From positions 153 to 64,152 of the forward strand of contig JBAZLL010000005.1 of the NCBI GenBank assembly GCA_041650255.1: a stretch of DNA of 64,000 nt, read 5' to 3'. Both the position numbers and the translations under genes were made by a program. Origin of the DNA: Candidatus Micrarchaeia archaeon. GTDB taxonomy: Archaea > Micrarchaeota > Micrarchaeia > Anstonellales > Anstonellaceae. Below the pieces are notes generated by a model that saw nothing but the letters and a program-made list of their open reading frames with translations, searched no databases and was not told where the DNA came from. Numbering within the stretch: the stretch's first letter is position 1; the number at the start of each line of letters is the position of its first letter. This document shows, piece after piece, positions 4,118 through 63,208 of the stretch.

Positions 4118-4173
4118 TCATTTATTAAACTATTGATTGTAATCGAAAACAGACGGGTAAGAGGGGGATACTA

Positions 4174-48382: not shown

Positions 48383-51118
48383 ATGGCTGAGGCAACCTTG
48401 GATTTGAGCGAGCGAGATACACGCAATGAGGTTATTGACCCCCAGCTCAAAAAAGTGGGCTGGATCAAGCACTATTTGAAAGAGGAAGTCAATCCGGTCA
48501 AGTCCGACATCAAGAACAAGCAGTATGAGCTCTATTCCGGCAAGGTCGAAAGAGGCGTCGATATGTTCATCGACTACCTTCTTCTTTCCGAGGATTACGC
48601 CCCTCTCGCCATCATCGAAGCCAAGAGATTCTGCAAAGACCCCGAAGCAGGCCGAATCCAGGCCAGAAGCTATTCCAAGGTCATTGAATCCAAAATCGGC
48701 TATAAAGTCCCCATCTTCCTGACCAACGGCCATATCTGGCAGTTCATCGACCAGGACGGCATAGAACGCCGTGTAAGCGGGGTATTCTCGCAAGAAGACC
48801 TCAAAAGACGGCACGAGAATTATCTCAACCGCAGGCTTCCCTCTCTAGTCAAGATAAGTGGCAAGATTGTTGACCGCCCGCGCAGCATGGCGATTGTCAA
48901 GGCGCTTAGCGAGCATTTCTCTAACGGGCACCGCTCCGCCCTCATCCAAATGGCCACCGGCACCGGCAAAACCCGTGTTTCCATGGCCACCATCGATGTT
49001 CTCGCAAACGCCAATTATGTCCGAAACGTCCTATTTATCGCTGATCGTATCGCTCTAGCGAACCAAGCCAAATCAGACGGCTTCAAGCGGTTTTTCACCG
49101 AGCCCGTCGCAGATTTGAGGGACGGAATCAGCAAGACCTCCCGCTTCTATATAACCACGGTTCAGACCCTAACTTCCGGCAAGCGCTCCAAGACCTACGA
49201 GAAATTCAGCCCTGCCTATTTCGACTTGATTGTATTCGATGAAGCGCACCGCTCCCTCTACGACAGAAACAATATTCTCTTCAAGTACTTCGATTCCATC
49301 AAAATCGGCCTCACCGCTACCCCAACGCAGGAGGATAGCCGCGACACTTTCGACCTGTTCGAATGTGATGTAAGCAAGCCCACCGTGGAATACTCCTATG
49401 ACGAAGCCGTCCATGATGGAATCTTGGTCCCTTATCGCGGCGAGACGATTGAAACCAAAGTCCTAGCCTTGGGTATCGAAGGCAAGGAGCTCTCCCCGGA
49501 GCTCAAAGACCTAATCCGAAAACAGGAACTTGATCCAGAGGGCGTAGCCTTCAGTGGCGGAGAATTCGACCGCGTGTTCATGGATGACAAGACCAATGAG
49601 CTGGTCATCCGCAGGTTCATGGAGCGGTGCTACAAATCCGACGAGGGCAAGCCCGCTAAAACCATCTTCTTCTGCGCCAGCCAGAAGCACGCCAAGCACC
49701 TCAAGAAAGTTTTCACTAAAATCTATCCTTCACTTGGAAACGATGTGCAGGTTATCACATCCGACATGCACCGCGCCGAGGATGAGGTGCGCCGTTTCAA
49801 GAACGATTCCGAGCCCCGCATTGCTTTATCCGTCGGCATGTTGGATACCGGTATCGACGTGCCCGAAGTCTGCAACCTCGTCTTTGTCAAGCCTGTCTAT
49901 TCCACCGTCCGCTTCTGGCAGATGGTGGGCCGAGGAACTCGGAATCAAAACTCTTGCCGTCATCCCGACTGGCTACAGGACAAGGAGAAGAAGGACTTCC
50001 TTATCCTCGACTTCAAGATTGGTGGTCATTCCAATATCGAGTATCACAAATTCCGCTCCTCCAAAGAGAGCTCCAGAATGGATGTCATGACGCGCATCTT
50101 CATCAACCGCGTCAAGCTTCTCAACAAGACGTTGGACAAAACCCAGAAGGCCATCATCATCAAGAAAATCATGGAGGACATCGAGAACCTCAACAAGGAC
50201 TCTTTCATCGTCCGTGAGAAACTGGCAATTATCAAGAAACTGGAATCCGACTCGTTCAACCTTGAGAAATACATCGAGGAACTGAACAAGGATATTTCGC
50301 CCCTGATGATGCTCAATTCGGGCATCAATTCCTATACTGCCTCCTTCATCCTCAATGCCGAGAAGCTGTTCGGCCTCATCCTTGACAATCGGCGGGACGC
50401 CATCGAGGAAATCCGCGCATCAACCTTAATGCCCATGGTCGAGAACGTCTTGCGCCGCACTAACCTGACCGAAGTCAAAGAAAAGCTCAATTCATTAAAA
50501 TTAACCCTGCAAGATAAGTTCTGGAACGAGCTAACCTTCGAGAGCGTCGAATTCCTCATCCGCGAGATTGCGCCCCTCATGAAATATTACTCGCCCGACC
50601 CACGCAAGGTCATCCAGATAGATGCTTTTGACATTATCACTGATATTCAGGAGTTCAAGAAAGAGGTCAAGGAAGACGAGAAGCTCAAAGAGCTTCTTGA
50701 AAAGAACCCCTTGGTGCGCAAGCTACGTGATGGCGACGGCCTAACCATGGATGAGCTGCGTCAGCTTGTGGAGATTTTCCAGAAAATCCGCCCCGAGATA
50801 ACAATCCCCAACATCCAGCAGAGCACGGGCGTCGATTTCATGGTCTTTTTGCATGAAACGATTGGGATGCGCAGCACCTATGACCCCCGCGAGCGCATTG
50901 AGCGGCAGTTCGACGATTTCATCATCAAGAACAGCCATTACAATTCCAAACAGCTTGAATTCTTGCACTTGCTCAAAAGGGTGTTTGTGGAGCAAAAGCA
51001 TCTCGAAATTCAGGATTTAGGCACCTCGCCCCTATCTGACCAACGCCCCTTGGATCTCTTCGAGATGGAACAGCTTGAGATGATTGTCAAGAGCTGCCAG
51101 AAGATAAAATTCAAATAA
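48383..51118 (+). CDS. hsdR: Type I restriction enzyme R subunit (HsdR)
   Basis: 911 aa. N-terminal nuclease region ERDTRNEVIDPQLKKVGW...DMFIDYLLL...LAIIEAKR (D...E-x-K). Helicase motif I MATGTGKT, motif II FDEAHRS, motif VI QMVGRGTR. The C-terminal ...SKQLEFLHLLKRVFVEQKHLEIQDL resembles the EcoEI_R_C domain. Confidence 0.9.
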   Translation: MAEATLDLSERDTRNEVIDPQLKKVGWIKHYLKEEVNPVKSDIKNKQYELYSGKVERGVDMFIDYLLLSEDYAPLAIIEAKRFCKDPEAGRIQARSYSKVIESKIGYKVPIFLTNGHIWQFIDQDGIERRVSGVFSQEDLKRRHENYLNRRLPSLVKISGKIVDRPRSMAIVKALSEHFSNGHRSALIQMATGTGKTRVSMATIDVLANANYVRNVLFIADRIALANQAKSDGFKRFFTEPVADLRDGISKTSRFYITTVQTLTSGKRSKTYEKFSPAYFDLIVFDEAHRSLYDRNNILFKYFDSIKIGLTATPTQEDSRDTFDLFECDVSKPTVEYSYDEAVHDGILVPYRGETIETKVLALGIEGKELSPELKDLIRKQELDPEGVAFSGGEFDRVFMDDKTNELVIRRFMERCYKSDEGKPAKTIFFCASQKHAKHLKKVFTKIYPSLGNDVQVITSDMHRAEDEVRRFKNDSEPRIALSVGMLDTGIDVPEVCNLVFVKPVYSTVRFWQMVGRGTRNQNSCRHPDWLQDKEKKDFLILDFKIGGHSNIEYHKFRSSKESSRMDVMTRIFINRVKLLNKTLDKTQKAIIIKKIMEDIENLNKDSFIVREKLAIIKKLESDSFNLEKYIEELNKDISPLMMLNSGINSYTASFILNAEKLFGLILDNRRDAIEEIRASTLMPMVENVLRRTNLTEVKEKLNSLKLTLQDKFWNELTFESVEFLIREIAPLMKYYSPDPRKVIQIDAFDIITDIQEFKKEVKEDEKLKELLEKNPLVRKLRDGDGLTMDELRQLVEIFQKIRPEITIPNIQQSTGVDFMVFLHETIGMRSTYDPRERIERQFDDFIIKNSHYNSKQLEFLHLLKRVFVEQKHLEIQDLGTSPLSDQRPLDLFEMEQLEMIVKSCQKIKFK

Positions 51119-51120
51119 AA

Positions 51121-51366
51121 TTAAGGAGTATAATGTGCCAGTCGTTCATTATAGCAATAAGCGAGTTTATTTTCTCCTTCAAATACTTGCTGATTTCTGC
51201 GATGTCGACCACTCGTTCCAAGAAGTCTTTGTGGCATTGATTTCTCACAAACAATAACTAATTTATCGCCGCGAATCTCGGTTTTTCCAGAAAACGAGAC
51301 GATATCTTCAAGTAAAATGTTTGAACTCATCAACAACGCCTTCCTTTTATGTCGATGTAGCAACAC
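51121..51366 (-). CDS. Hypothetical small protein (probably 69 aa from MSSNILLED...)
   Basis: ORF-track entry. An internal ATG is preceded by a GGAAGG-like sequence. No motif recognised. The 120 bp upstream (51367-51487) has only short broken frames. Confidence 0.3.
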   Translation of the reverse strand: MLLHRHKRKALLMSSNILLEDIVSFSGKTEIRGDKLVIVCEKSMPQRLLGTSGRHRRNQQVFEGENKLAYCYNERLAHYTP

Positions 51367-51487
51367 GCACCGTTTGAGCCCTGCGCCATAGAATAAGCAA
51401 AATGAACTTCTCGCTTGTCAGGTAATGACATACGTTGTACTAGTTTACGCGCCACGCAGACTATTCGTTTGCTCTTGATGCCATCAA

Positions 51488-51847
51488 CTACCATCTGAGT
51501 TTACCCTCAGTCTGAAGTTTTGTAAATATTTTTAACACAACTTCGATGTCGAGATTGCAAGCCTCTGCTACATCACTGGCGTATGCCTCTCGATTTTTAT
51601 CCAAATAAGTTAAAACTTTTTTATATGCATCTTCAAATGGAACTTCCTCTACATAGATTATTTTTGCAGATGCCTGCAATTCTTTCACTTCGTGTTCGAG
51701 AGTTTCTACTTTTTCACAAAGCGTACTTATTGCAGCTGTCTTATGAAGCAGTTCGGAATCGAATTTTTCCTGAAGTTTCACGATTTGCTTAGCGATTACC
51801 GCCTCGATATCTAGATTCTCTATACATACGGTTTGCGTCGATTCCAT
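51488..51847 (-). CDS. Coiled-coil plus C-terminal winged-helix (wHTH) DNA-binding protein
   Basis: 119 aa. The heptad-like N-terminal half (IAKQIVKLQEKFDSELL...VETLEHEVKELQ) is followed by YKKVLTYLDKNREAYASDVAEACNLDIEVVLKIFTKLQTEGKL, a typical wHTH layout. Its start abuts the stop of 51849..52148. Confidence 0.55.
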   Translation of the reverse strand: MESTQTVCIENLDIEAVIAKQIVKLQEKFDSELLHKTAAISTLCEKVETLEHEVKELQASAKIIYVEEVPFEDAYKKVLTYLDKNREAYASDVAEACNLDIEVVLKIFTKLQTEGKLRW

Positions 51848-51848
51848 A

Positions 51849-52148
51849 CTATCCCTTCTCCAACAAATCGATAAACTGTTTTAGCTGAGAAACGTCTTTT
51901 TGGTTGATTGTACTAATATAAACTATCTTTTCTTTAATGTCAGTTGCGTTTTCAATAGATAATGATATTAGGGACGCGTTGATTACTTTTCCCTCGTCAT
52001 TCTTATTTTCTTTAATCAAAATAATTGAAATTGGTGAAAAACCCAATGAATTGTATTTTTCATTAAAAGTATCCTTTAGCAAATTCTTTAATTCAAAATT
52101 CGATAGTTTGTATTTAACAGGCTCCGCGCTTGTTACAGGTTCAGCCAT
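51849..52148 (-). CDS. Hypothetical protein (99 aa)
   Basis: ORF with protein-like composition and first gene of a minus-strand pair. No motif recognised. Confidence 0.5.
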   Translation of the reverse strand: MAEPVTSAEPVKYKLSNFELKNLLKDTFNEKYNSLGFSPISIILIKENKNDEGKVINASLISLSIENATDIKEKIVYISTINQKDVSQLKQFIDLLEKG

Positions 52149-52194
52149 ATAATCGCCAGATTTGTGATTCTCGCATATTTTTTAAAACATTCGT

Positions 52195-52233
52195 GCATCG
52201 TTCGGCTTTGCGTCAAGTCCTCTCGAACGATGC
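52195..52233. promoter_or_regulatory. 10-bp perfect inverted repeat GCATCGTTCG-N19-CGAACGATGC in a 290-bp divergent intergenic region (candidate operator or structured leader)
   Basis: Read directly. A third half-site-like copy, GTCGAACGAAAGC, lies at ~52246-52258, and GCTTTGCG/CGCAAAG complementarity is nearby. Confidence 0.45.
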
Positions 52234-52437
52234 AAATGTTGCCCCGTCGAACGAAAGCGCAAAGTCGTATTGTTTGAACTCTCCTAGTGGTGTTCGACCG
52301 CAGTCTCAAACCTTCGGAGTTGTTCCAGTTAAGCTACGGCAACTGGGTTTTATAATGTTTAACCGAACTATTTCTTATATTTGGTTTACCTTTTCCAACC
52401 ATTAGCTATATTAACCCTTTATCTCTAAGTCTTATTT

Positions 52438-52812
52438 ATGGACACACACAAATCCATGGCCACGAAGCTGCCAATCAAGGAATACACTTGGATTCTGGAT
52501 TACTGCAACCGGAAGAAAATAACGCCCTCCGCGCTGATCAAGGAGCTTCTTCTGGAAGAAATCGGGCCTTCTCCTTCTCACGTTGCTGGCCGGAACCTCA
52601 TCAGCTATGACAAGAAAAAGGACTCCTTTGTCTGGAGCGTCGAGCTGGACAATGGGAAGAAGGCCGTGGCAGCGGAAAACCTGTCTGCTGAGTTTCTTAA
52701 AGACCTGAACCACGGTATTTCAGATGCTTTGGTTTCTCGGGAGGAAATGATCGGTCGGAAGAAGAAAGGCTCGGTGGCAGTGCCGAAGCGGTTGATACGA
52801 GGGAAACGATGA
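52438..52812 (+). CDS. Ribbon-helix-helix (CopG/Arc-like) protein with an uncharacterised C-terminal extension
   Basis: 124 aa. The N-terminal MATKLPIKEYTWILDYCNRKKITPSALIKELLLEEI fits the beta-strand/helix/helix RHH pattern. Its stop overlaps the next start (ATGA). Confidence 0.55.
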   Translation: MDTHKSMATKLPIKEYTWILDYCNRKKITPSALIKELLLEEIGPSPSHVAGRNLISYDKKKDSFVWSVELDNGKKAVAAENLSAEFLKDLNHGISDALVSREEMIGRKKKGSVAVPKRLIRGKR

Positions 52813-53432
52813 AGAAGGAAGAAGCGATTAAACAATTACAAGACTTCAACAAAGCCGGAGTTGAACTATTTCGATTGAGCTTTGTCAAGAAGATGCAAGA
52901 GCCGAATTGCGGTTACAGTATGAATTTTGAGAAAGGTAAAGGAATAACCTGCATTTTTCGGGGCCCAGATGATGAAGCGGTGAAAGCGTTCTGTAATGAT
53001 TTGCGAAAATTTATCCAAAAAAACGATTACCTTCATTATGGTAATTTAAAGAAAATATATGATTCAGATTTTGTTACGGCAGAAGAACGCGCTTCTTTCT
53101 ATGAAATTCTCAGCCAACTTAAACAGTTCACGGAAACCTCAACAAATCATAGTGTAAATGGAGAGCTAATAACCTACGCGAGAGCTCTGGAGGTTTTTCT
53201 ATATGGAAAAATTTCCCACATGTCAGATCACCATCAAAATCGCAAGACATATGAGAAATGGGAAGGTTTTCCCCCAACCTACGTCTCGCTCAAAAACGAG
53301 TTTATGGTAATTCTATATGAGTACATGCGAGTGTTCATAAATAACTTCATGATTTCCAACAATCGCGTATTGGAACGACTTGGCTATCCTAGGATAGAGA
53401 TAATGGAGGGTGTGAATGAATCTAACAAATAA
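52809..53432 (+). CDS. Hypothetical 207-aa protein embedded upstream of hsdS (no recognisable motif)
   Basis: The ORF overlaps the upstream gene by 4 nt and hsdS by 17 nt, implying co-translation with the R-M specificity and methylase genes. Predicted largely alpha-helical. Confidence 0.55.
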   Translation: MKKEEAIKQLQDFNKAGVELFRLSFVKKMQEPNCGYSMNFEKGKGITCIFRGPDDEAVKAFCNDLRKFIQKNDYLHYGNLKKIYDSDFVTAEERASFYEILSQLKQFTETSTNHSVNGELITYARALEVFLYGKISHMSDHHQNRKTYEKWEGFPPTYVSLKNEFMVILYEYMRVFINNFMISNNRVLERLGYPRIEIMEGVNESNK

Positions 53433-54573
53433 ACATTTGCCAGACGGATGGACGAGCATACGGTTTGAGGATGCCTTCGAGCGCCTGCCCAAGACCAAAA
53501 TAAAGGCGGGTGAGGGGCTTGAACAAGGCAAATACAAATTCTTCACTTCTAGCGACGAGCAGAAGAAATTCCTTGATAGCTACGAATTCGATGGCGAGCA
53601 TCTGATTCTCGGAACTGGTGGTGTTGCGAGCATCCATTACTGCAATGAGAAATTTTCGACAAGTACAGATTGTTTTGTCATGAAACTCAAGGCGAAAGAC
53701 ATACTATTGAAATATATCTACTATTTCTTCCGAAGTCGTTTCTACTTGTTGGAGGAAGGTTTTCGAGGAGCAGGTTTGAAGCATTTATCTCGCCACTACC
53801 TAAACGAAATATCTATCCCATATCCAGAAAGTAAAGAAACTCAGAAGAAAATTATCTCCATCCTTGAGAAGGCAGAATCTCTCAAGACTTCCCGCGAGGA
53901 AGCAGATAAGCTCACGAATGAGTTACTCAAGAGTGTGTTCTGTGAGGTGTTTGGAGATCCGGTGAGGAATGAAAAAGGATGGGAACAATCTGTTTTGAAA
54001 GAAAAATCCGAGATCATTCAGATCGGGCCGTTTGGTACTCAATTGCACGTTGAGGATTATACTACTGGTGGTATCCCGCTAGTGAATCCGATGCACATTA
54101 TAAATAAAAAAATCGTTCCAGATTTCAATTTTACTGTATCTCCTAAGAAATATGACGAGCTATCTAATTATCATATGAAAGTCGGAGACATCATAATGGG
54201 TCGGCGCGGTGAAATGGCCAGGTGCGCATTAGTAACTACAAAAGAAGATGGTTGGCTATGCGGAACCGGCAGTCTGTTCATTAGGCCGAAGAACGACGTT
54301 AATTCTCTATTTCTACTTTTTTGTTTAACTCACGCATCCATGAAAAAAGTTCTCGAGAACAATTCTCAAGGAGTAACGATGAGTAATCTTAATTTATCTA
54401 TTATAAATAATTTAAAAATAATTGTCCCTCCGCGTAAATTGCAAAATAAGTTTGCTGAAATTTCTGAGCGTCTAAATTCGATTAATGAAAAACAGGCAAC
54501 TTCTTCAGACAAAATCGACCAGCTCATTTATACATTAATGCAAAAAGCATTTAGCGGCGAGCTATTTGGATGA
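53416..54573 (+). CDS. hsdS: Type I restriction-modification specificity subunit (HsdS), two target-recognition domains
   Basis: 385 aa with a GGAGGGTG ribosome-binding site. LPDGWTSIRFEDAF opens TRD1. The central conserved helix is KKIISILEKAESLKTSREEADKLTNELLKSVF. TRD2 follows, then a C-terminal conserved helix ending ...LMQKAFSGELF. Confidence 0.9.
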   Translation: MNLTNKHLPDGWTSIRFEDAFERLPKTKIKAGEGLEQGKYKFFTSSDEQKKFLDSYEFDGEHLILGTGGVASIHYCNEKFSTSTDCFVMKLKAKDILLKYIYYFFRSRFYLLEEGFRGAGLKHLSRHYLNEISIPYPESKETQKKIISILEKAESLKTSREEADKLTNELLKSVFCEVFGDPVRNEKGWEQSVLKEKSEIIQIGPFGTQLHVEDYTTGGIPLVNPMHIINKKIVPDFNFTVSPKKYDELSNYHMKVGDIIMGRRGEMARCALVTTKEDGWLCGTGSLFIRPKNDVNSLFLLFCLTHASMKKVLENNSQGVTMSNLNLSIINNLKIIVPPRKLQNKFAEISERLNSINEKQATSSDKIDQLIYTLMQKAFSGELFG

Positions 54574-54917
54574 TGATTATGGCTAAAGATAAGACTGGGT
54601 TGGAAGAAAGTCTAAACATGACTGAGATGCTGCTGGTTTACATCTCAAAAAATGAACCAATGGATAGAACTGGTTTACTAAAATTAGTAGAAGGCGCAAA
54701 AATAGATCCCGATAAATTACTTCTAAATTTAGGTCGGTTAAAAGATGCGAACCTAATAGACTATGAAGTGATACTTGTTTTTGGGGAAGATTTTCCTAGA
54801 ATCTACAATGTCAAACTCACTTACAACGGACTAAAAGAAATTGATTCTCTTTTGAAAAGAAAGAATATCGTTAAAGGAATGGAATTGAATTTTGGTTTAT
54901 TGAAAATCATGATTTAG
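54570..54917 (+). CDS. Hypothetical 115-aa protein between hsdS and hsdM (possible YjcQ-like winged helix)
   Basis: Its start overlaps the hsdS stop (ATGATG/TGA). LLNLGRLKDANLIDYEV...VKLTYNGLKEI resembles the recognition helix plus wing of small wHTH proteins. This is a weak call. Confidence 0.45.
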   Translation: MMIMAKDKTGLEESLNMTEMLLVYISKNEPMDRTGLLKLVEGAKIDPDKLLLNLGRLKDANLIDYEVILVFGEDFPRIYNVKLTYNGLKEIDSLLKRKNIVKGMELNFGLLKIMI

Positions 54918-54927
54918 GTGGTTCTCT

Positions 54928-56415
54928 ATGCTTGACTCCGAACTAAAATCAAAAATAAATAAGCTCTGGGAAAAACTCTGGAGCTCAGGTATCTCAAATC
55001 CCTTGAGCGCTATCGAGCAAATCTCATACCTTCTTTACATGAAGCATCTAGAGGACGAAGACATCTTACACCAGCAAAACGCTAAACTGACCAAAGAAAA
55101 ATATTCCTCCATCTTCGATAAAAACAATGATTGCAGATGGAGCGTTTGGACTGAATATCAAGCCGATAAAATATTAGAGCACGTCCGAACCAAGGTATTC
55201 CCATTCCTCAAAACCTTGGGGGAAAAGGACTCCATGTACAACCAGTACATGCAGGACGCGGTTTTCATCATCCCAACCCCCTCCGTTCTAATTGAAGCGG
55301 TCAAAATCATCAATGAACTGAAAATCAAGGAGCAGAACCGGGACACCCAAGGGGACATCTACGAGTACCTTCTTTCAGAGCTCACCACAGCCGGTAAGAA
55401 TGGCCAATTCCGCACTCCGAGGCACATCATCCGCATGATGGTCGAACTGATTGGCCCAAAATATGGGGAAACTATCTGTGATCCGGCTTGTGGAACCTCT
55501 GGCTTTTTGGTCAATGCCTATGAGCATATCCTCAAAACCAACACTTCCAAAGACCTCATCAAGCGCGATGAGGCCGGGAACGAATATGGCTTTAGCGGGG
55601 AAAAACTCAATTCCAATCAGTTGGAGATTCTCAGGAAAGAAACCCTCTATGGCTTTGACAATGACCCAACTATGGTAAGAATTGCCCTGATGAATCTTAT
55701 GATGCACGGCATCACGAGGCCTAATATCCAACAGATGAATACCATCTCGACGCGGTTCTCGCAAGCCAACTACTATGACATCATCCTGGCAAATCCGCCC
55801 TTCAAGGGTAGTGTGGATGAATCGGAGCTAAGCGACCAATTCACCATCAAGACCAAAAAGACCGAGATTCTATTCTTGGAACTCATGCACCGGCTTCTCC
55901 ATAATGGCGGCAAGTGCGCCGTTATCGTACCGGACGGCATTGTTTTCGGCAGCTCCAACGCCCATCAGGATATACGCCAGCTTCTGCTTGAAAAGTGCCG
56001 CCTAGATGCGGTAATCTCCATGCCTTCGGGCGTCTTCAAGCCTTATGCTGGAGTTTCTACTGCCGTGCTGTTTTTCACTAAAGGCGAACCTACCAAAAAA
56101 GTCTGGTTCTATGATATGGAATCCGACGGTTTCAGCCTAGACGACAAACGGACGTTTATCGATGGCAAGGGGGATATTCCTGATATTATCGAGAAATTCA
56201 AGAAAAGGGAAAAAGAGAAATACGAAGACCGAAAGGCCAAATGCTTCTTTATCCCGTTTGAGGAGATTAAGGCAAATGGCTATGATCTGAGTATTTCCAA
56301 GTACAAGGAGATTGTTCACGAAGAGGTCAATTACGAGAAGCCTCACGTGATCAAAAAGAAGATTTTAGACCTTGAGGAGAGCATTATCAAGACGCTCAAG
56401 GAGATTGAGGTCTAA
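54928..56415 (+). CDS. hsdM: Type I restriction-modification N6-adenine DNA methyltransferase subunit (HsdM)
   Basis: 495 aa with a TAGGTGG ribosome-binding site. HsdM_N-like N-terminus (LWEKLWSSGISNPLSAIEQISYLLYMKHLED), SAM motif I DPACGTSGFL and catalytic motif IV ANPPFKG. Confidence 0.95.
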   Translation: MLDSELKSKINKLWEKLWSSGISNPLSAIEQISYLLYMKHLEDEDILHQQNAKLTKEKYSSIFDKNNDCRWSVWTEYQADKILEHVRTKVFPFLKTLGEKDSMYNQYMQDAVFIIPTPSVLIEAVKIINELKIKEQNRDTQGDIYEYLLSELTTAGKNGQFRTPRHIIRMMVELIGPKYGETICDPACGTSGFLVNAYEHILKTNTSKDLIKRDEAGNEYGFSGEKLNSNQLEILRKETLYGFDNDPTMVRIALMNLMMHGITRPNIQQMNTISTRFSQANYYDIILANPPFKGSVDESELSDQFTIKTKKTEILFLELMHRLLHNGGKCAVIVPDGIVFGSSNAHQDIRQLLLEKCRLDAVISMPSGVFKPYAGVSTAVLFFTKGEPTKKVWFYDMESDGFSLDDKRTFIDGKGDIPDIIEKFKKREKEKYEDRKAKCFFIPFEEIKANGYDLSISKYKEIVHEEVNYEKPHVIKKKILDLEESIIKTLKEIEV

Positions 56416-56591
56416 ACATCCTGCTCCATCAAAGTCGTTCTTCCGTTCTTTTTTGCCCTTCCAAGGGCCTCCTTTAGGATAGCCTCATTCTTCCCATCCA
56501 TCGCATCGATAAAACCCATCGAGATTCTCATGCTGTTGCGATGGGCAAAAACAACGAGCTTCGTCTTTTTCACGAACTCCATCTCAATCAT
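56412..56591 (-). CDS. Small 59-aa protein overlapping the stop of the upstream wHTH gene (alternatively, the downstream half of a frameshifted gene reaching 56717)
   Basis: The ATG of MIEMEFVKKTKLVVFAHRNSMRISMGFIDAMDGKNEAILKEALGRAKKNGRTTLMEQDV overlaps the TGA of 56584..56880 (ATGATTGA). The track's longer 101-aa version (GTG 56717) overlaps the wHTH gene by 134 nt. Confidence 0.35.
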   Translation of the reverse strand: MIEMEFVKKTKLVVFAHRNSMRISMGFIDAMDGKNEAILKEALGRAKKNGRTTLMEQDV

Positions 56592-56880
56592 CCTCAACAA
56601 ATAGCCGTTGGCGTATCTCTCCCGCCTTGGAAAGTTGATGGCCCAGCGTGCCTTTGTATAATCCACGCGCTGCATCGAGCTTCCGCTCTTTGTGGATGAG
56701 AATACGGAACCCGACACGCTCGCTTTTCACTTCAGACTGATGCTGGATAAAGTCTATGATTTCGAGGTATTTCTTCACTGTTTTCGGATGCAAATGAGAC
56801 GAACGACACAACTTATTGAAGCTGACCGGCTCTTCACCGAGCCGTGTAAACAATTTTTCCGCAATGGTTAATTGGGTCAT
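56584..56880 (-). CDS. Winged-helix DNA-binding protein (98 aa)
   Basis: LTIAEKLFTRLGEEPVSFNKLCRSSHLHPKTVKKYLEIIDFIQ gives a three-helix wHTH pattern, followed by a wing-like VGFRILIHKE. Confidence 0.55.
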   Translation of the reverse strand: MTQLTIAEKLFTRLGEEPVSFNKLCRSSHLHPKTVKKYLEIIDFIQHQSEVKSERVGFRILIHKERKLDAARGLYKGTLGHQLSKAGEIRQRLFVEDD

Positions 56881-57030
56881 GCTTCACCGAACATAATTAA
56901 TGTCCAAAGACCACTATTAAAGCTCCCATTATTGTTCGGGTATTGTGCGGAACGGGACTATGGCATGAAAATGCCTAATTGAGCATGAAAGTATTTATCC
57001 AATCAAAATCATAGTTTCAGGCGTGCTTGT

Positions 57031-57159
57031 ATGGTAGAACTGGACGACGAGGAAATCAACAAACGAATGCCGCAGTGGTATCTTGACGTGCTCAAAGAGG
57101 TCGAACATCAGAAAGTTGCGCAAAAACAGAAAAGACAGGTCGGAAAGCTTTTCTCATAA
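57031..57159 (+). CDS. Possible 42-aa ORF upstream of the HEPN-motif pair
   Basis: MVELDDEEINKRMPQWYLDVLKEVEHQKVAQKQKRQVGKLFS, with an acidic N-terminus and a basic C-terminus. No clear ribosome-binding site. Below the track cutoff. Confidence 0.25.
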   Translation: MVELDDEEINKRMPQWYLDVLKEVEHQKVAQKQKRQVGKLFS

Positions 57160-57207
57160 ACACCGGGCGCGTATCTTATTAATGTCCAATTCCAAATTGG
57201 AAATCAC

Positions 57208-58116
57208 ATGGCTCCGAGGGTAAAAGAGTTTTTGAGGTCAATCTGGGGCGCGGAAGTCCCGTTCTTAGAATGCAGACTCGATATCTCGAAAATTAAGGAC
57301 AATGGAGACATGTTTGACAAACTAAAAACTCACCTTCCATTAAGCGTAATTAACTCATCGGGAACACTTGTTTTAGATCCGAGAAAGAAAAAGGGTCAAG
57401 ACTTGCAGTATTATCCACTAGATAAAAACTCCGATTTTGCCATTTTCTATGCTGGCGAGCTGAATCAAATCGGTGTTGTTTCACTAGAATTAGATATGCA
57501 AAAATTAGAGTTGTTAAAGAAAGTATTAGAAACTGATTTCAATCAATTTGTTACCTGCTCTGACATTTCTGATGTAAAAGATGCTTATGTGAAGCGATTA
57601 TGCTACTTCCTAATCTTCAGGAAGTACATTCAAGACGGGTGCGCATCCTCAAAATTCTGTGATTCGACCCGAGACAGGATTCTAACTGGTTTAAACATCT
57701 TTGAAACGATTGCTGAAAATAAGAACAATGCCTACATTGTCGCATTTTTCATGTGCGCCGCAGTTGAAGAATTGTTATACCTAATCGGGAGAAAAGCGAA
57801 GATTGCTATCAAGCCCGACACCATTGGGAGAGTTTTAGGGCGCCTCAAAGGCGAACAGTATTTGACTGTGCAATATCCTACTCCTCAAAACAAAAATTTG
57901 CTTGTTTATGACAGTTTTGATAGCTCTACAAATATTTTTTCAACGAAAAATCCAAAAGATAAATTTGATTGTTCGTTGGTTGATGAAGTAAATGATATCC
58001 GCACTAGTTTTGTGCATTTCTCTACTTCAGACCCAAATATTCCTGCAGATTGTTTAACCTTGATTATCAACCTAGGAATGCTCCTAAGGTGGTGTGAAGA
58101 TAATGGATACCTATAA
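57208..58116 (+). CDS. Hypothetical 302-aa protein with a C-terminal helical domain carrying an Rx4H (HEPN-like) motif
   Basis: The N-terminal ~115 aa look beta-rich. The C-terminal half is helical, with AAVEELLYLIGRK and NDIRTSFVH (R265-H270, nt 58000-58017). Preceded by the inverted repeat TTCCAA-A-TTGGAA. Confidence 0.6.
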   Translation: MAPRVKEFLRSIWGAEVPFLECRLDISKIKDNGDMFDKLKTHLPLSVINSSGTLVLDPRKKKGQDLQYYPLDKNSDFAIFYAGELNQIGVVSLELDMQKLELLKKVLETDFNQFVTCSDISDVKDAYVKRLCYFLIFRKYIQDGCASSKFCDSTRDRILTGLNIFETIAENKNNAYIVAFFMCAAVEELLYLIGRKAKIAIKPDTIGRVLGRLKGEQYLTVQYPTPQNKNLLVYDSFDSSTNIFSTKNPKDKFDCSLVDEVNDIRTSFVHFSTSDPNIPADCLTLIINLGMLLRWCEDNGYL

Positions 58117-60046
58117 TTCTAACCAAATTCGTAAAAAAGTCGATGACACACTTAATGCGAATTATGAGCGCATGTACCCATTTGAGCTAGAACGTTCTCT
58201 AAATTCACTAGGGGTTCAAGCGAGAGATAACGGGGACGAAAAGACTCTTCAGGAAATCAGGTGGGAGTTTGATTTGCTGAATGCAACATTCGGTCATAGC
58301 GCAGTCTATCAAGGGGAGCAAGTAAGCGAGATTAGCAATAAATGGGCTGCGATATTAAAGAATGGAAAAGACATAAACTCAGGGGGAAAGGTAAGCTCAT
58401 TTGACGTTCGTTCCGAAGCTGGAGGCAGCAACGTATCTTTTCAATTATTTTCTAACCCTCCCTTCTGCACATGGGACAAAAACGCTTTAGACTACTATAA
58501 GAAAAGATACTCTGAGACTACTAGCAGCCTATCGAAAGCCCGTTATGCTTTTGCAGTTGCAGTATTGCTCAAGGAAAGCGGATCCAAACCTAATGAATGG
58601 ATTGAAAAAAGTATCGCGAGTTGGGTCAAAACCGCCGAACAATACATCGCCTCGGGCCAGTATAACCAACAATACTATGAGGTTCCACCTTTTGCTTACG
58701 AATTCGCCATAAAACTTAGTCTAATGTTTAGTATGGGTGAGGCCGCTACCAGTGCGCTGAATTCCCTGCATGCGGCTATCGTCAAGATGATCAATTCTGG
58801 TGAAAAGCGATGGTATCTCGAATACGTTGAAGTAGAATCGACTTATCTAAACTCCGCTGCGTTGAAGAACGAGTCCATGTCCTTGATAACTGGGGTAATC
58901 TCCGATCTCGAATCGAAGTTTGATTCAAGTAGCGATAAATCTCAAAATCTACATTTCTACCGAAGAAATATCCAACTTCTACTTGATTATGGTGTTAAAG
59001 ACGACTTTGAGTGGAATAAAAAAATCGCAGAATCCTATCTAAAAGAAGCAGATTTTCGTGAAGAACAGGTCAAATCTGCATTCTACGAAGATGCAATAAA
59101 ACATTACAAAATGATGCAAAGTAAATACTCTGCCGATTCTGTAAAGAAAGGAGAGATAGACTCAAAGCTCGAAACAATTGCCTTGAAAATTAAGGATGCT
59201 AGTGCAAAATTCAAATACAAACAAATTGCGAGTACATTCACTATCACCAATGATCAAATTAAGCAGTATATTGATTTCTTAAAGAGCAAAGGAGGGAACA
59301 CCTTCCTAAGTCTGGTTGACGATTGGTCTCTATTTCCAAATATCAAACAATCTGAAGAGATGACACAGCTCATAAAATCTGAACACGGGCTTCAATTCGT
59401 ATTGCCCGTAGAAGTATGTTGTAAAGACGGGCCAATAATTAGATATACGACTGATGATCAAATTTTCGAGTATAAAGTTAGGCAAAACATGCTGCTTGGA
59501 ATTAGGATCGGCGAAATCATGTTAAAAATGACATTTGAACAATTAGAAAAAGAAAATGGGATAAAATTGTTAAGCGAGATCAATGACATTCTGAGTTGTA
59601 ATGATATCTCAGATATACGTGAAACGCTTAGGTGCGGGTTTGGTTATCTTTTCGGAGAAAAAAAGGATTATACTGCGGGTTTGCATATCCTAATTCCATA
59701 TCTCGAGGAACTAATCCGAAGAATCATCGTGAAATCTGGAAAAATTGATACTGTTCTATCAGGTAAACCCAAGGTTTTCTTTAGAAAAATAGAGCTTGGT
59801 ACTCTTTTGACTGATGACGCAGTTGGGACTATATTAAACAAAGATTTTCAAAAAACTCTTCACATCTATCTAGTTGCAACTGACCAAGCAAATCTAAGAA
59901 ATATGCTTCTACATGGGATGATGAAGTCTAATGAGATTAAGGATTCCGACGCTCTCTTTGTAAGTTATTGTCTCCTTAAATTAATCCGAATACTAAACGA
60001 GTTGCCCGTTATACCTCAAGTTTCCTCTCCAGTCCCATCTCCATAG
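58103..60046 (+). CDS. Hypothetical ~647-aa helical protein with a C-terminal DUF4209/LA2681-like HEPN motif (LEELIRR ... ANLRNMLLHG)
   Basis: ATG 58103 has AAGGTGG 10 nt upstream. The track start GTG 58094 is also possible. Overlaps the upstream gene by 14-23 nt. The Rx4H motif lies at nt 59897-59914. The 3' end overlaps the convergent integrase gene by 38 nt. Confidence 0.65.
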   Translation: MDTYNSNQIRKKVDDTLNANYERMYPFELERSLNSLGVQARDNGDEKTLQEIRWEFDLLNATFGHSAVYQGEQVSEISNKWAAILKNGKDINSGGKVSSFDVRSEAGGSNVSFQLFSNPPFCTWDKNALDYYKKRYSETTSSLSKARYAFAVAVLLKESGSKPNEWIEKSIASWVKTAEQYIASGQYNQQYYEVPPFAYEFAIKLSLMFSMGEAATSALNSLHAAIVKMINSGEKRWYLEYVEVESTYLNSAALKNESMSLITGVISDLESKFDSSSDKSQNLHFYRRNIQLLLDYGVKDDFEWNKKIAESYLKEADFREEQVKSAFYEDAIKHYKMMQSKYSADSVKKGEIDSKLETIALKIKDASAKFKYKQIASTFTITNDQIKQYIDFLKSKGGNTFLSLVDDWSLFPNIKQSEEMTQLIKSEHGLQFVLPVEVCCKDGPIIRYTTDDQIFEYKVRQNMLLGIRIGEIMLKMTFEQLEKENGIKLLSEINDILSCNDISDIRETLRCGFGYLFGEKKDYTAGLHILIPYLEELIRRIIVKSGKIDTVLSGKPKVFFRKIELGTLLTDDAVGTILNKDFQKTLHIYLVATDQANLRNMLLHGMMKSNEIKDSDALFVSYCLLKLIRILNELPVIPQVSSPVPSP

Positions 60047-61244
60047 CCTTCTCTGCCAGCATCTTCCTGAATTTCGGATCCTCCATTACAGCACTCATGA
60101 AACTGTCGGCCTCGCGCCGCTTCTTCTCAAGCTGGATGGCCGCCTTCATCTCCAAAGCCATCCCGCACTCCACGCAGAACTTGGCCGAAATCGGATTCAT
60201 CTTCTCGCAGCTGGGGCAGGTGCGGGGCTGCAAAGGCTCGCTTGTCATAACGTCCCTTTTCAGAAGCCCCCGCTTCTCCAGCATCTTCTTGTCGATATCT
60301 GCGCCAGAAAGATGAACATACGTGGCGGGCATTTTCGAGCCTCCCGTCCAGCCAAAGATGATTTTCAGCTCCTGCTCTGTAAAGTCGGTAGCCAGGTGGG
60401 TAGCCCGTGAGTGCCTGAACAGGTGGGGGTAAATCCGCTTCTTCAATTTCGCCCGATTTTTTGCCTTAATCAGGATGTTGCGCAGAGTAACGTTGCTGTC
60501 CAGTGCCCCATCGTTCCGGGCTACGGTAAACAGATGCGCCTGCGGGTTGTCTGCCTGTGGGTGGTGGTTGAGCCAAATCCTCAAGTCAGGCACCGAATCA
60601 ATCAGCCGAACCCGCCTCATGCCGGTTTTTCCGTCCAGAATCAAAGAAGCCCCGTAATCGTCAAAAGTCAGGTTGCGAATCTCCAAATCAAGTAATTCTC
60701 CGGCCCGACACCCGCTCTCATACAGGAGCATAATCAAGGCCCGGTCGCGGGGGTTATCGCACACATCCGCCAGTTTCCGAACGTCGTCCTTGGTCAAAAT
60801 GTCCTCGGGCAGTTTCCGGCGCTCAAACCCGTGCGTTTTGATCCACGAAACCTGCTCGGGGTAATTGTTCTCGCCAAAGAGCCACTTGTAAAACGCCTTG
60901 ATACTCACTTTCAAGGAGCGGCTTTTGTAATCGGCGTTCTCGTTCAAGAAGTCGATCATGTCGTCTTTGGTCAAGTCCTTGAAATTCCGTTTCTTGAAAA
61001 ACCTGGCCAGTTTGTTGAGGCAGTAAATATAGATGTAACGAGTCGATGGTGCCATTCCCTGCGCCGATTTCTCGCGCTCGAAAGCGTGCAGGGCCTCAAA
61101 ATTGGGTTTCGTCAAGCTCCTGAGTCCACTTAGAAGCTTGACGGGATTTCGTTGGCTTCTCATACTGTATTTGAGCAACTGAAGCTTATAACCTCTGCTC
61201 CGTCTGTCGTCATTTTTGGCATCAGTCCGTCCGTCTCTCATCAT
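60009..61244 (-). CDS. Tyrosine recombinase/integrase (XerC/D-like) with a C-terminal zinc-ribbon extension
   Basis: 411 aa. A SAM-like N-domain, then catalytic residues in LLYESGCRAGEL (Arg), HLFRHSRATHLA (H-x-x-R) and PATYVHLS (Tyr). C-terminal CPSCEKMNPISAKFCVECG. Confidence 0.9.
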   Translation of the reverse strand: MMRDGRTDAKNDDRRSRGYKLQLLKYSMRSQRNPVKLLSGLRSLTKPNFEALHAFEREKSAQGMAPSTRYIYIYCLNKLARFFKKRNFKDLTKDDMIDFLNENADYKSRSLKVSIKAFYKWLFGENNYPEQVSWIKTHGFERRKLPEDILTKDDVRKLADVCDNPRDRALIMLLYESGCRAGELLDLEIRNLTFDDYGASLILDGKTGMRRVRLIDSVPDLRIWLNHHPQADNPQAHLFTVARNDGALDSNVTLRNILIKAKNRAKLKKRIYPHLFRHSRATHLATDFTEQELKIIFGWTGGSKMPATYVHLSGADIDKKMLEKRGLLKRDVMTSEPLQPRTCPSCEKMNPISAKFCVECGMALEMKAAIQLEKKRREADSFMSAVMEDPKFRKMLAEKAMEMGLERKLEV

Positions 61245-61263: not shown

Positions 61264-61411
61264 TACATCATCTGCCGCAATTATTATCTCATCCATCTCT
61301 CATTAAGGTTTTCTTTTTGGATAAGCCCTAGCCTTTTTCTTTTCTTAAAAGAAAAAGGCTTGGGTACATCATCTGCCGTATTTAGTTCTCATCCATCTCT
61401 CATTAAGGTTT
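61264..61411. repeat. Two ~47-nt direct repeats (61264-61311, 61365-61411) flanking a 17-bp imperfect hairpin (61326-61364), immediately upstream of the integrase start
   Basis: The repeats share TACATCATCTGCCG and TCTCATCCATCTCTCATTAAGGTTT. The hairpin is CCCTAGCCTTTTTCTTTT-CTT-AAAAGAAAAAGGCTTGGG, with one mismatch. Confidence 0.65.
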
Positions 61412-61471: not shown

Positions 61472-63208
61472 ATGGGAAGGCGCGATTCAAGACGAAGAGG
61501 GAGAGTAAAAGCCAACAAAAAAACTCTCTTCGAATCCAATCCCATGCTCAAAATGGGAATGATAAAACAAGGCGAGGCAGAGCTTAGGGATGCCTCCGCC
61601 GAACTTCTTGCTCCTTTGGAAATGAATGAACTTATTCCGCGAATGCAAGAGTCTGATCAATTTGAGCCGGTTTCACAAAAAACGCCATCTTCTAAAAATT
61701 CGTTTTTGGAAAATGTCTGGCATCCAATTTCAGGAGTGGGAAAAATCAAGCACGCACATGCGCGGGGAGCTGGAATGGTTCATTCCACATCAAAAAGCTC
61801 AAGGCAGATAATTGCAAAGCCGCACATTGCCAAAGGCGTGAAGCAATTGCAAATTGTGCAAAATAAAAAAGAAATGGAAGTTATCGCCGCCCCATCATTC
61901 CAATCTCATGAAATGCAAACTCCTTCACAATCGGCGGCAGAGCCGATTTTAGCCTCCCCAACTTCGCCTCAAATGCCGGTCATAAACAAGATGCCTGCGT
62001 ATATTCCTTTCTTTTCACATTCCCCGCAAAAAACATCCGTTTCCATGCATCCGATAATTTCGCAATCGCAAAAAACATCTGTTTCTGTGCGCCCGATAAT
62101 TTCGCAATCGCAAAAAACAATTCAGACAAAACAAAATATTTCCGCCAACATCGAGCCGGAGCCGATTTTGCAACACGATTCTCCAAAAATTTCTGAAATG
62201 AAAAAAATCAGCAAAGGGCAATCATTCTCAATATTCGGGCAGAAAAAGCCGACAACAGTTGAGCGGGCATTTGAAATTCATGAGAAAACGCACGAGCCTT
62301 TGCCGGTGGATTTCTCTGCGCCGGAGCCGGAACGTCATCCTCTGCCAAAAATATCCGTTGCTTCCAAAACAATTTCCCTGCCAAAAACAATTGCCGCCCC
62401 GCAGGCACTGGCAATTTCCAAAGCCGGCAGTGAAAAAATTATTGTTTCAAAACAAGACAAACCAAAAGCTATTGAGCCAATTTCACCTCCTCGCGATTTG
62501 CAAATGCACAAAATAAAAGAGTTTGAAGTCCCGCAGGGATTTTTCTCACCGAAGCCGGCGCAGGCAACTTCTCATTTGCAAACAATTGAGAAACCAAAAG
62601 AAATATTTGCACCAAAGCAAGCGGTTCAAAAAACAAATAAAAAAGTTTTGAAAACAAAACAAGAGCCAAGCGCAGTATTCTCAATTCCAAAATTAAAGCT
62701 AAATATGCCAAAAGAAAAACAAACTTTTGGTGCATCCCGTGCTGTTTTAGCTCCGAAGAAAAAAGTTGTGCAAGTGCCGCAAGTAATCAATATGCAACAT
62801 ATTTCGGGGCACGAGACTTTGATGGGCAAATTCTTTGCCGCAAAGCCAAAAATAATGCCTGCCGGTCTTGAGCAAATACAATTGCGCGAGCAAGAGCGCA
62901 AGCAAACACACGCAAGCGAGCAGGCAAAGGTTATTTTGCCATTGCAGATTTTGCCGCCAAAACAGGCTGATGCAATTTTGGCTAAAACAAAAGCAAACCA
63001 GCCCGAAAAGAAAATTGATTCCGCGCAATTGAAATTTATTTCAAAGAGCAAATATCCCGAAAAAGGCGAATCCAAAAAACAACTGCAAGAAGAGCGGGAA
63101 AAACTTTTGCCCCGAAGGGAAGTGCTCAAATCGGCGCCCAAAAAAGAAATGGGATTATTTGAAAAAGCATCCTCATTATTTGGCTCTCTTGAAGTCAAGC
63201 CCGAATAG
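61472..63208 (+). CDS. Lys/Pro/Gln/Ser-rich low-complexity (probably disordered) protein with internal tandem repeats
   Basis: 578-aa ORF. Basic N-terminus MGRRDSRRRGRVKANKK. Recurrent P-K/Q-K motifs. Contains an in-frame 42-nt repeat. No enzymatic motif. Confidence 0.55.
   Translation: MGRRDSRRRGRVKANKKTLFESNPMLKMGMIKQGEAELRDASAELLAPLEMNELIPRMQESDQFEPVSQKTPSSKNSFLENVWHPISGVGKIKHAHARGAGMVHSTSKSSRQIIAKPHIAKGVKQLQIVQNKKEMEVIAAPSFQSHEMQTPSQSAAEPILASPTSPQMPVINKMPAYIPFFSHSPQKTSVSMHPIISQSQKTSVSVRPIISQSQKTIQTKQNISANIEPEPILQHDSPKISEMKKISKGQSFSIFGQKKPTTVERAFEIHEKTHEPLPVDFSAPEPERHPLPKISVASKTISLPKTIAAPQALAISKAGSEKIIVSKQDKPKAIEPISPPRDLQMHKIKEFEVPQGFFSPKPAQATSHLQTIEKPKEIFAPKQAVQKTNKKVLKTKQEPSAVFSIPKLKLNMPKEKQTFGASRAVLAPKKKVVQVPQVINMQHISGHETLMGKFFAAKPKIMPAGLEQIQLREQERKQTHASEQAKVILPLQILPPKQADAILAKTKANQPEKKIDSAQLKFISKSKYPEKGESKKQLQEEREKLLPRREVLKSAPKKEMGLFEKASSLFGSLEVKPE
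62027..62120 (+). repeat. In-frame 42-nt tandem repeat (2.2 copies) encoding QKTSVS(M/V)(H/R)PIISQS
   Basis: Copies at 62027-62068 and 62069-62110 differ at a few positions. A partial third copy lies at 62111-62120. Confidence 0.75.

Follow-up and report, generated by a model that had tools for sequence, protein, structure and literature searches.

Paired Rx4-6H motifs underlie the action of HEPN ribonucleases (RNases), such as Cas13, Csm6, RNase L and HepT. At least 16 clades of HEPN proteins are linked to restriction-modification (R-M) systems, and one family, DUF4209, was described under the name "C6orf70" as catalytically intact, fused to tetratricopeptide repeats (TPRs) and found in R-M operons, with the phyletic pattern given in 2013 as "Bacteria > Eukaryotes" (Anantharaman et al. 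2013, PMC3710099). For its eukaryotic member, C6orf70/ERMARD, a role in the degradation of RNA in the cell has been predicted (PMC3710099), and the "PDC" candidates of the PADLOC database, one of which (PDC-S39) will concern us here, are common in DPANN archaea and untested (PMC12988326). Here, we describe a DUF4209 gene and its partner on a 64,000-nucleotide (nt) stretch of contig JBAZLL010000005.1 (positions 153 to 64,152, forward strand; assembly GCA_041650255.1) from a metagenome-assembled genome of a Candidatus Micrarchaeia archaeon, the whole of which we call the window. Gene A (57208-58116, + strand; 302 amino acids (aa); GenBank WC492_03245, hypothetical) overlaps gene B (58103-60046, + strand; 647 aa; GenBank MFA5108521.1, "DUF4209 domain-containing protein") 3' of a type I R-M system. 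On balance, we think that the two genes, coupled in translation, encode a HEPN RNase, probably a heteromer, and that it serves as an effector of abortive infection linked to R-M.

The assignment of B is the firmest part of this reading. The DUF4209 HEPN domain (PF13910) maps to 59702-59965 (+) with a Pfam E-value of 6.9e-8 (32.9 bits against a gathering cutoff of 22.3), and PF13910 is present in all 45 full-length members of a set of 46 homologues (42-49% identity), of which all named ones come from DPANN archaea. Protein B contains exactly one Rx4H motif, the putative catalytic R599-N-x3-H604 (LRNMLLH; 59897-59914, +), in which the residue after the arginine is the polar N; across 24 proteins of the B family (43-51% identity) R599 and H604 (in the context L-R-N-x-L-x-H-G) are invariant save in one truncated entry. 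The acidic helix IPYLEELIRRII carries E535 and R539 (E535-x3-R539; 59705-59719, +), both invariant in the same alignment and matching the Ex3[KR] accessory motif defined for the HEPN helix that precedes Rx4-6H (PMC3710099). An earlier note, made from the sequence of the window, had placed an acidic helix 75-80 residues before the Rx4H of both proteins; the spacing is 78 residues in A, whereas E535 of B lies 64 residues before R599. The same note's suggestion that B is a DUF4209 HEPN protein held up, and the equation of DUF4209 with the LA2681-like proteins did not, LA2681 and C6orf70 (DUF4209) being tabulated as separate HEPN families (PMC3710099).

Gene B could start at GTG 58094 (650 aa) or at ATG 58103 (647 aa) and stops at 60046; we take the ATG as the real start because homologues begin with M-x-x-Y-N there, NCBI annotates the 647-aa form and the same 14-nt overlap with gene A recurs at every homologous junction that we read. 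The AlphaFold model of B is all-alpha, with a predicted TPR-like alpha-solenoid over about residues 126-500 (58478-59602, +; pLDDT 82), and a Foldseek search with the full-length model returned TPR or solenoid proteins only (LGN, BamD, SNAP and IFIT5, at weak E-values); this modelled fold is consistent with the TPR fusion noted for the C6orf70 family. A sequence search of B against the PDB gave no match. In a scan with the PADLOC profiles, to which PADLOC's own score and coverage thresholds were left unapplied, B matched both PDC-S39 profiles (PDLC05012, E = 7.8e-24 over profile positions 147-596 of 615; PDLC05011, E = 5.2e-17). Judged by these profile matches, B is a member of a known HEPN family and an existing defence candidate, not a new one. 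The earlier note had called the pair undescribed, which is too strong for B: it is annotated as DUF4209 in GenBank, matches PDC-S39 and belongs to a family already connected with R-M operons in the literature of 2013. A, by contrast, is an uncatalogued protein.

Gene A is the less familiar half of the pair. It, too, encodes exactly one Rx4H motif, R265-x4-H270 (IRTSFVH; 58000-58017, +), and both this motif and that of B lie where the earlier note had put them. One Rx4H in a single protein is about what chance would give, and it is because they are conserved across their families that the motifs of A and B exceed it. In an alignment of 16 A proteins at 13-30% identity, I264, R265, H270, G290, W295 and C296 are invariant, and the residue after the arginine is the polar T, N or K. 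A local-pair alignment of the 16 C-terminal domains, drawn from three branches of the family, shows that E187 (57766-57768, +) is invariant as well; this putative HEPN helix-2 residue sits in the acidic helix AAVEELLY, 78 residues before R265, and in the contexts VEELL, IENRL or LEQNL in the three branches. Between E187 and R265 lies a variable insert, which in a branch of 317-aa proteins has some 35 residues fewer; an insert of this kind between these two positions is typical of HEPN domains.

The AlphaFold model of A, of moderate confidence (pLDDT 74, pTM 0.76), consists of an alpha/beta N-domain (residues 1-120; 57208-57567, +), which is hypervariable and a candidate sensor or specificity domain, and a helical HEPN-like C-domain (residues 126-302; 57583-58113, +) with helices at 126-142, 152-165, 174-196, 206-215, 255-269 and 280-298. 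The two models thus agree with the domain layout that the earlier note had proposed for A and B. In the model of A, helix 255-269 carries R265 near its end, the loop that follows opens with H270, and the last helix (280-298) comes after it; this topology fits HEPN, whose motif has been placed in the same position (PMC3710099). Two relatives of A match known HEPN-bearing defence proteins below threshold and across the motif region, P0055 with PD-T4-2_B (E = 0.011) and P0063 with HEPN_Apea (E = 0.015); PD-T4-2 is listed with the PF18735 HEPN domain (PMC10952713). The claim that A is a HEPN protein is therefore supported by the invariant E...Rx4H signature and the model topology and not by a significant profile or fold match, and we regard a HEPN domain in A as probable rather than demonstrated.

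An exhaustive phmmer search of 1.84 billion representative proteins with A returned five real relatives and one false positive, P0053, a 1252-aa repetitive lipoprotein whose match is driven by repeats, and a word-index search recovered A itself alone. A profile search added the 317-aa branch, and the third branch (IRNKVFH, at locus L024) was missed by the hidden Markov model and recognised by its position and motif, which brings the family to about 20 relatives in billions of proteins. By these searches A represents a new, tiny, DPANN-restricted family with a HEPN-like catalytic signature. A tblastn search of phage genomes with A gave no match, and a phage DUF4209 protein at rank 13 of the fold search with A (E = 0.62) is not evidence of kinship.

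The two genes are joined in a way that appears to have been strictly maintained. They overlap by the 14 nt ATGGATACCTATAA (58103-58116, +), and the Shine-Dalgarno-like site AAGGTGG (58086-58092, +), seen by the earlier note as a ribosome-binding site inside gene A, lies 10 nt 5' of the gene B ATG over the A codons R294-W295-C296, with its GGTG core in W295-C296. We read 18 junctions, that of the window and those of 17 homologous DPANN-archaeal loci, and all have an overlap of the same length, the lower end of the 14-23 nt that had been noted. Likewise, GGTG or GGAGG stands in the same place, within the W-C codons of A, at each of the 18, and the junction takes the form tGGTGt-gaa-gAxA-ATGGnnnnnTATAA throughout (TCTGA in L024). 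Such conservation argues for strong selection for coupled, stoichiometric translation. The E187, R265 and H270 codons of A lie outside the overlap.

We fetched 30 loci with relatives of B from GTDB genomes and JGI metagenomes, about 26 of which are informative, and in 17 of these an A-family open reading frame (ORF) stands directly 5' of gene B. In each A-family context that we read, a gene occupies the B position 3' of the A-family gene, again with the 14-nt overlap; this gene was confirmed to be B in all cases tested (the short contigs L032 and L033 were left out). The pair that the earlier note had inferred from one genome is thus a conserved, translationally coupled unit across DPANN loci, and the arginine and histidine of both motifs are kept in the families to which its members belong. 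In L024, the gene 5' of B is the A-like gene of the third branch. In L014, the position is taken by a 192-aa protein outside the A family (4006-4584) that bears the motif IRNDFAH and matches HEPN_RiboL-PSP (2.7e-5) and HEPN_MAE_28990 (8e-5) just under the cutoffs, so that a different HEPN family appears to fill the partner position there.

The partners diverge together and at different rates: pairwise identities of A and B correlate (r = 0.73), and A is always the more diverged in comparisons between branches. The clearest case is that of L011 and L012, whose B proteins are 78% identical and whose B genes are 75-85% identical in DNA along their whole length, whereas the A genes come from different branches, with DNA identity at random level, and the drop falls exactly at the A/B junction. 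The breakpoint shows that A, above all its N-domain, has been exchanged on a constant B. Exchange of this kind is what one would look for in a component for specificity, sensing or immunity.

An immunity component would bring the pair close to a toxin-antitoxin system, with B as a HEPN toxin and A as a co-translated neutraliser or regulator that masks the HEPN dimer interface of B and is released or degraded on infection, its motif being structural and not catalytic. A smaller gene first, a larger one second and a short overlap between them make up the classic type II toxin-antitoxin layout; the tight stoichiometric coupling is conserved, and A evolves fast and is swapped as an immunity or antitoxin cassette would be. 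There is also no other conserved antitoxin candidate: a 42-aa ORF (57031-57159), which the earlier note had named as one and which is annotated in GenBank, is absent from the other loci, in which A follows the R-M gene before it at once or after a very short gap, and it is therefore not a conserved component of the module. A mere plug is hard to reconcile with the strict invariance of E187, R265 and H270 across three otherwise dissimilar branches of A, however, and the many loci with B and no A imply that B is tolerated without its supposed antitoxin. Nor does A carry the DNA-binding or nucleotidyltransferase domain typical of known HEPN antitoxins. We consider a neutralising A unlikely.

The same loci bear on a second alternative, in which A and B are two independent, co-expressed RNases ("multiple cuts") that each homodimerise and attack different RNA targets with no A-B complex. 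HEPN proteins commonly homodimerise, operons combining several RNases have been noted (PMC3710099), B is found solo elsewhere, and various HEPN families, namely the three branches of A and the RiboL-PSP-like gene, can precede it. Against independence, the 14-nt overlap and the internal Shine-Dalgarno site are kept at 18 of 18 junctions even when A has been swapped, which suggests selection for a fixed stoichiometry, and no A-family gene was met that lacked a neighbour in the B position. On this evidence, two enzymes working side by side seem to us quite unlikely, and a heteromeric A-B RNase remains the reading that we prefer.

The neighbourhood of the pair is that of a defence island or mobile island. 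R-M genes flank the pair or B in at least 12 loci, in the same orientation and often with stop/start overlaps of 1-4 nt, in line with the defence setting that the earlier note had proposed from the window. In type I systems, the pair or B lies between hsdS and hsdR (L007) or between hsdR and hsdS (L019); type III-like mod and res genes adjoin it in L004, L018, L020 and L022; Eco57I/MmeI-like type IIG genes with a preceding Schlafen-AlbA2 gene do so in L005/L027, L008, L015 and L034, the last also with a PLD-SNF2 helicase; and in L013, B stands with a cluster of helicase, PD-(D/E)XK and GmrSD genes. Integrases lie near B in four loci, those of L006 and L020 being related and those of L027 and L034 being other tyrosine integrases.

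Two of these neighbourhoods deserve a description of their own. In L011, an ArdA anti-restriction gene (5966-6469; E = 1.4e-27) lies about 500 nt 3' of the A-B pair, so that this copy of the module probably rides a mobile element that also carries anti-restriction. The cluster at L034 (1-12819; also in L005, L027 and L035-L037) runs in one direction from a PLD-SNF2 helicase through a Schlafen-AlbA2/HATPase_c_4 gene and an 1181-aa Eco57I/MmeI-like methylase-nuclease to A, B, a gene for a 308-aa protein and an integrase. The 308-aa gene overlaps gene B by the same 14 nt, has no Pfam match and may be a third component in that sublineage.

Such company raises the question of whether the pair is cargo of the mobile elements themselves, an addiction module that stabilises an island or plasmid by post-segregational killing or serves in competition between elements. 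In the window and in L006, L020, L027 and L034, the module has a tyrosine integrase beside it or close by, ArdA stands beside the pair in L011, a DUF4209 gene sits on the Natrinema plasmid pJ7-1, and the distribution is patchy. Most copies, by contrast, lie inside R-M operons in the same orientation and with overlapping stops and starts, as part of the defence cargo, and neither att sites nor a tRNA target turned up in the window; addiction and defence are, moreover, not mutually exclusive. We judge a pure addiction module very unlikely. A housekeeping RNA-processing factor unrelated to conflict, as the predicted role of C6orf70/ERMARD in cellular RNA degradation might suggest, is scarcely credible given the sporadic distribution (tens of homologues in billions of proteins), the R-M, integrase and ArdA neighbours and the exchange of A as a cassette.

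The model that we favour for the A-B RNase is as follows. The operon would supply two HEPN-type, metal-independent RNase subunits in fixed proportion, with A probably translated from a near-leaderless mRNA and B by coupling through the 14-nt overlap and the ribosome-binding site inside A. B would be the conserved core, a TPR-like helical scaffold with a C-terminal DUF4209 HEPN domain, and A the variable partner, with a fast-diversifying, swapped alpha/beta N-domain and a helical C-domain bearing the HEPN signature. The HEPN domains of A and B would pair to build a composite RNase site. The variable domain of A, the TPR region of B or both may sense infection or the failure of the neighbouring restriction system, upon which the activated complex would cut cellular RNA, viral RNA or both and cause growth arrest, dormancy or abortive infection. 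The module would thereby form a second line behind R-M, as PrrC and RloC do, and travel with R-M clusters on integrase-bearing DPANN islands. A bolder version, which we put forward tentatively, is that A-B is a two-subunit archaeal immune effector not recognised before, with a composite site made from two HEPN families and a hypervariable, cassette-swapped sensor A that determines to which viral cue, or to the failure of which R-M or BREX-like system, RNA cleavage is the response. If this were true, DUF4209/PDC-S39 would be a modular guard that can be plugged into any restriction system in DPANN archaea.

Several observations weigh against the A-B RNase and explain the reserve with which we propose it. 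On the side of A, there is no Pfam, NCBIfam or PADLOC match, no sequence match in the PDB at E <= 10 and no Foldseek match in the PDB and BFVD at E < 0.1; comparison of the A and B C-domains with hhalign, from whole and from trimmed alignments, gave a probability below 1%, the acidic helices aligning non-significantly. The invariance of W295, C296, N299 and G300 in A is no independent evidence at the protein level, since the Shine-Dalgarno site and ATG of gene B overlap these codons. On the side of B, Foldseek with the full-length model recovered no HEPN structure, and the literature that we searched contained no experimental work on DUF4209, on PDC-S39, on this pair or on an RNase activity of ERMARD. 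B lacks an A-like gene in about one third of the loci (L002, L006, L010, L013, L019, L020 and L023), and its only plasmid match is a distant solo DUF4209 gene on the haloarchaeal plasmid pJ7-1; together with the definition of PDC-S39 as a single gene, this suggests that B may not need A. As for R-M, the window pair forms a transcription unit of its own, separated from hsdM by a divergent gene, and the occurrence of the module on four R-M types makes a PrrC-like physical latch on one R-M enzyme unlikely.

In the window, the type I R-M system (48383-56415, +) was recognised by homology to the annotated hsdR, hsdS and hsdM of L019 and L007 and comprises hsdR (48383-51118), hsdS (53416-54573) and hsdM (54928-56415), with small accessory ORFs in between. 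Genes for 124-aa and 207-aa proteins, overlapping by 4 nt, occupy 52438-53432 (+) between hsdR and hsdS. The 124-aa protein has only weak RHH, RelB or DUF6290-like matches, and its homologues (34-44% identity) lie directly 3' of hsdR in two loci of the same type I family (L019, 1123-1509; L030, 450-836), where a small transmembrane protein gene and then a B or B-like gene replace the gene for the 207-aa protein, itself of no assigned family; the gap between hsdR and hsdS looks like a slot for variable accessory cargo. A 115-aa ORF (54570-54917, +), which overlaps hsdS by 4 nt and precedes hsdM, has no family match, and its database variants differ in their start (112-115 aa).

Between hsdM and the A-B pair lies a 98-aa winged-helix-like gene (WC492_03235; 56584-56880, - strand), divergent from gene A and a possible regulator, whose DprA_WH match (E = 0.004) is below the cutoff. 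The earlier note had seen a divergent pair of winged helix-turn-helix (wHTH) genes here, but these minus-strand ORFs, at 56412-56717 and 56584-56880, share 134 nt in different reading frames, and databases contain the 98-aa one alone, so that there is probably a single gene. The 327-nt intergenic region between this gene and gene A holds both copies of the exact 12-mer ATTAATGTCCAA that occur in the 64 kb, the first at 56896-56907, upstream of the wHTH gene, and the second overlapping a 10+10 palindrome (ATGTCCAATT/AATTGGAAAT) just 5' of the gene A ATG. The latter element (57178-57204, +; about -30 to -4 relative to the ATG), a post-hoc observation, is promoter- or operator-like; it fits an archaeal TATA-like box for a near-leaderless gene A transcript, and the ATTAATGTCCAA element may serve both genes as a TATA-like promoter element or bind the wHTH protein as its operator.

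On the other side, a tyrosine integrase with a zinc ribbon (60009-61244, -) converges on gene B and overlaps its non-conserved 3' tail by 38 nt. The last ~15 residues of B (ELPVIPQVSSPVPSP; 59995-60046), which lack conservation in homologues, fall inside the 3' end of the integrase gene, and GC content steps there from ~0.35 to 0.53, which points to a boundary left by recombination or insertion where gene B ends. Genes A and B have a GC content of 0.38-0.39, against a window mean of 0.434, 0.50 for hsdR and 0.52 for the integrase. The module is thus more AT-rich than its surroundings, as the earlier note had remarked, but only mildly (~5 points under the mean), and the real outliers are hsdR and the integrase; independent acquisition is weakly argued from such a difference. 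With hsdR and the integrase richer in GC than hsdS, hsdM, gene A and gene B, the island seems to have been pieced together from parts of differing history. The 64 kb contain no tRNA gene, and no convincing att-like direct repeats flank 48-61 kb. Just 5' of the integrase start there is a ~100-nt tandem duplication (61264-61411; units 61264-61311 and 61365-61411, with an exact 25-mer repeat within), and beyond it lies a 578-aa low-complexity ORF rich in K, Q, P and S (61472-63208, +), of no obvious function, with an internal 42-nt tandem repeat (62025-62108) that encodes the peptide repeat HPIISQSQKTSVS.

In the tiny genomes of DPANN archaea, few defence systems other than R-M have been recognised. 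One of their PDC candidates takes a concrete and testable shape in this locus, which also extends the R-M-linked HEPN observation of 2013 from bacteria to archaea. A DUF4209/PDC-S39 gene is often half of a two-gene unit, and single-gene definitions therefore miss the partner. The swapping of A on a constant B amounts to a natural experiment on the targeting or triggering of HEPN RNases, and the pair may inform the function of the eukaryotic C6orf70/ERMARD.

Compared with known systems, B is closest to the DUF4209/C6orf70 family (PF13910; Anantharaman et al. 2013, PMC3710099), which it resembles in its Pfam score, its RNxxxH and Ex3R motifs, its TPR-like N-terminal region and its placement in R-M operons; the hosts here, however, are DPANN archaea, and no obligatory upstream HEPN-like partner has been described for the family. 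B matches both profiles of the unvalidated PADLOC candidate PDC-S39 nearly end to end, but the single-gene definition does not cover the coupled second gene present here and in 17 of ~26 informative loci, and A is not in PADLOC. The anticodon nucleases PrrC and RloC are likewise HEPN-type RNases in or beside R-M loci and provide a functional parallel, that of a latent RNase standing behind restriction, yet they carry an ABC or Rad50-like ATPase, a domain detected in neither A nor B; PrrC and RloC are also absent from the matches of the PADLOC scan, and each of them comprises one HEPN gene where the present module has two and sits on type I, IIG, III and IV systems alike.

Other HEPN systems share single features with the pair. 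The HEPN1/HEPN2 domains of Cas13 and the dimers of Csm6, RNase L and HepT, each with a composite site from two Rx4-6H motifs, are the template for an A-B heteromer, in which the HEPN domains would instead belong to two distinct proteins, translated together and of different families; CRISPR, cOA-sensing (CARF) and kinase domains were not detected. PD-T4-2, a validated two-gene Escherichia coli system of DUF262 and HEPN proteins, and ApeA have HEPN-bearing effectors that two relatives of A match across the Rx4H, but at E-values (0.011-0.015) below any cutoff, with no DUF262 partner here and no match for the A of the window itself. HEPN-MNT (HepT-MntA) is, again, a two-gene module with a HEPN RNase, whereas A and the neighbouring ORFs contain no nucleotidyltransferase and the partner here bears a HEPN-like motif of its own. 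R-M-linked HEPN back-up nucleases are an established theme, and nothing in it is overturned by this locus; what is new is the conserved HEPN-like partner A, the invariant junction that ties it to B, its behaviour as a cassette and the distribution of the pair in DPANN archaea.

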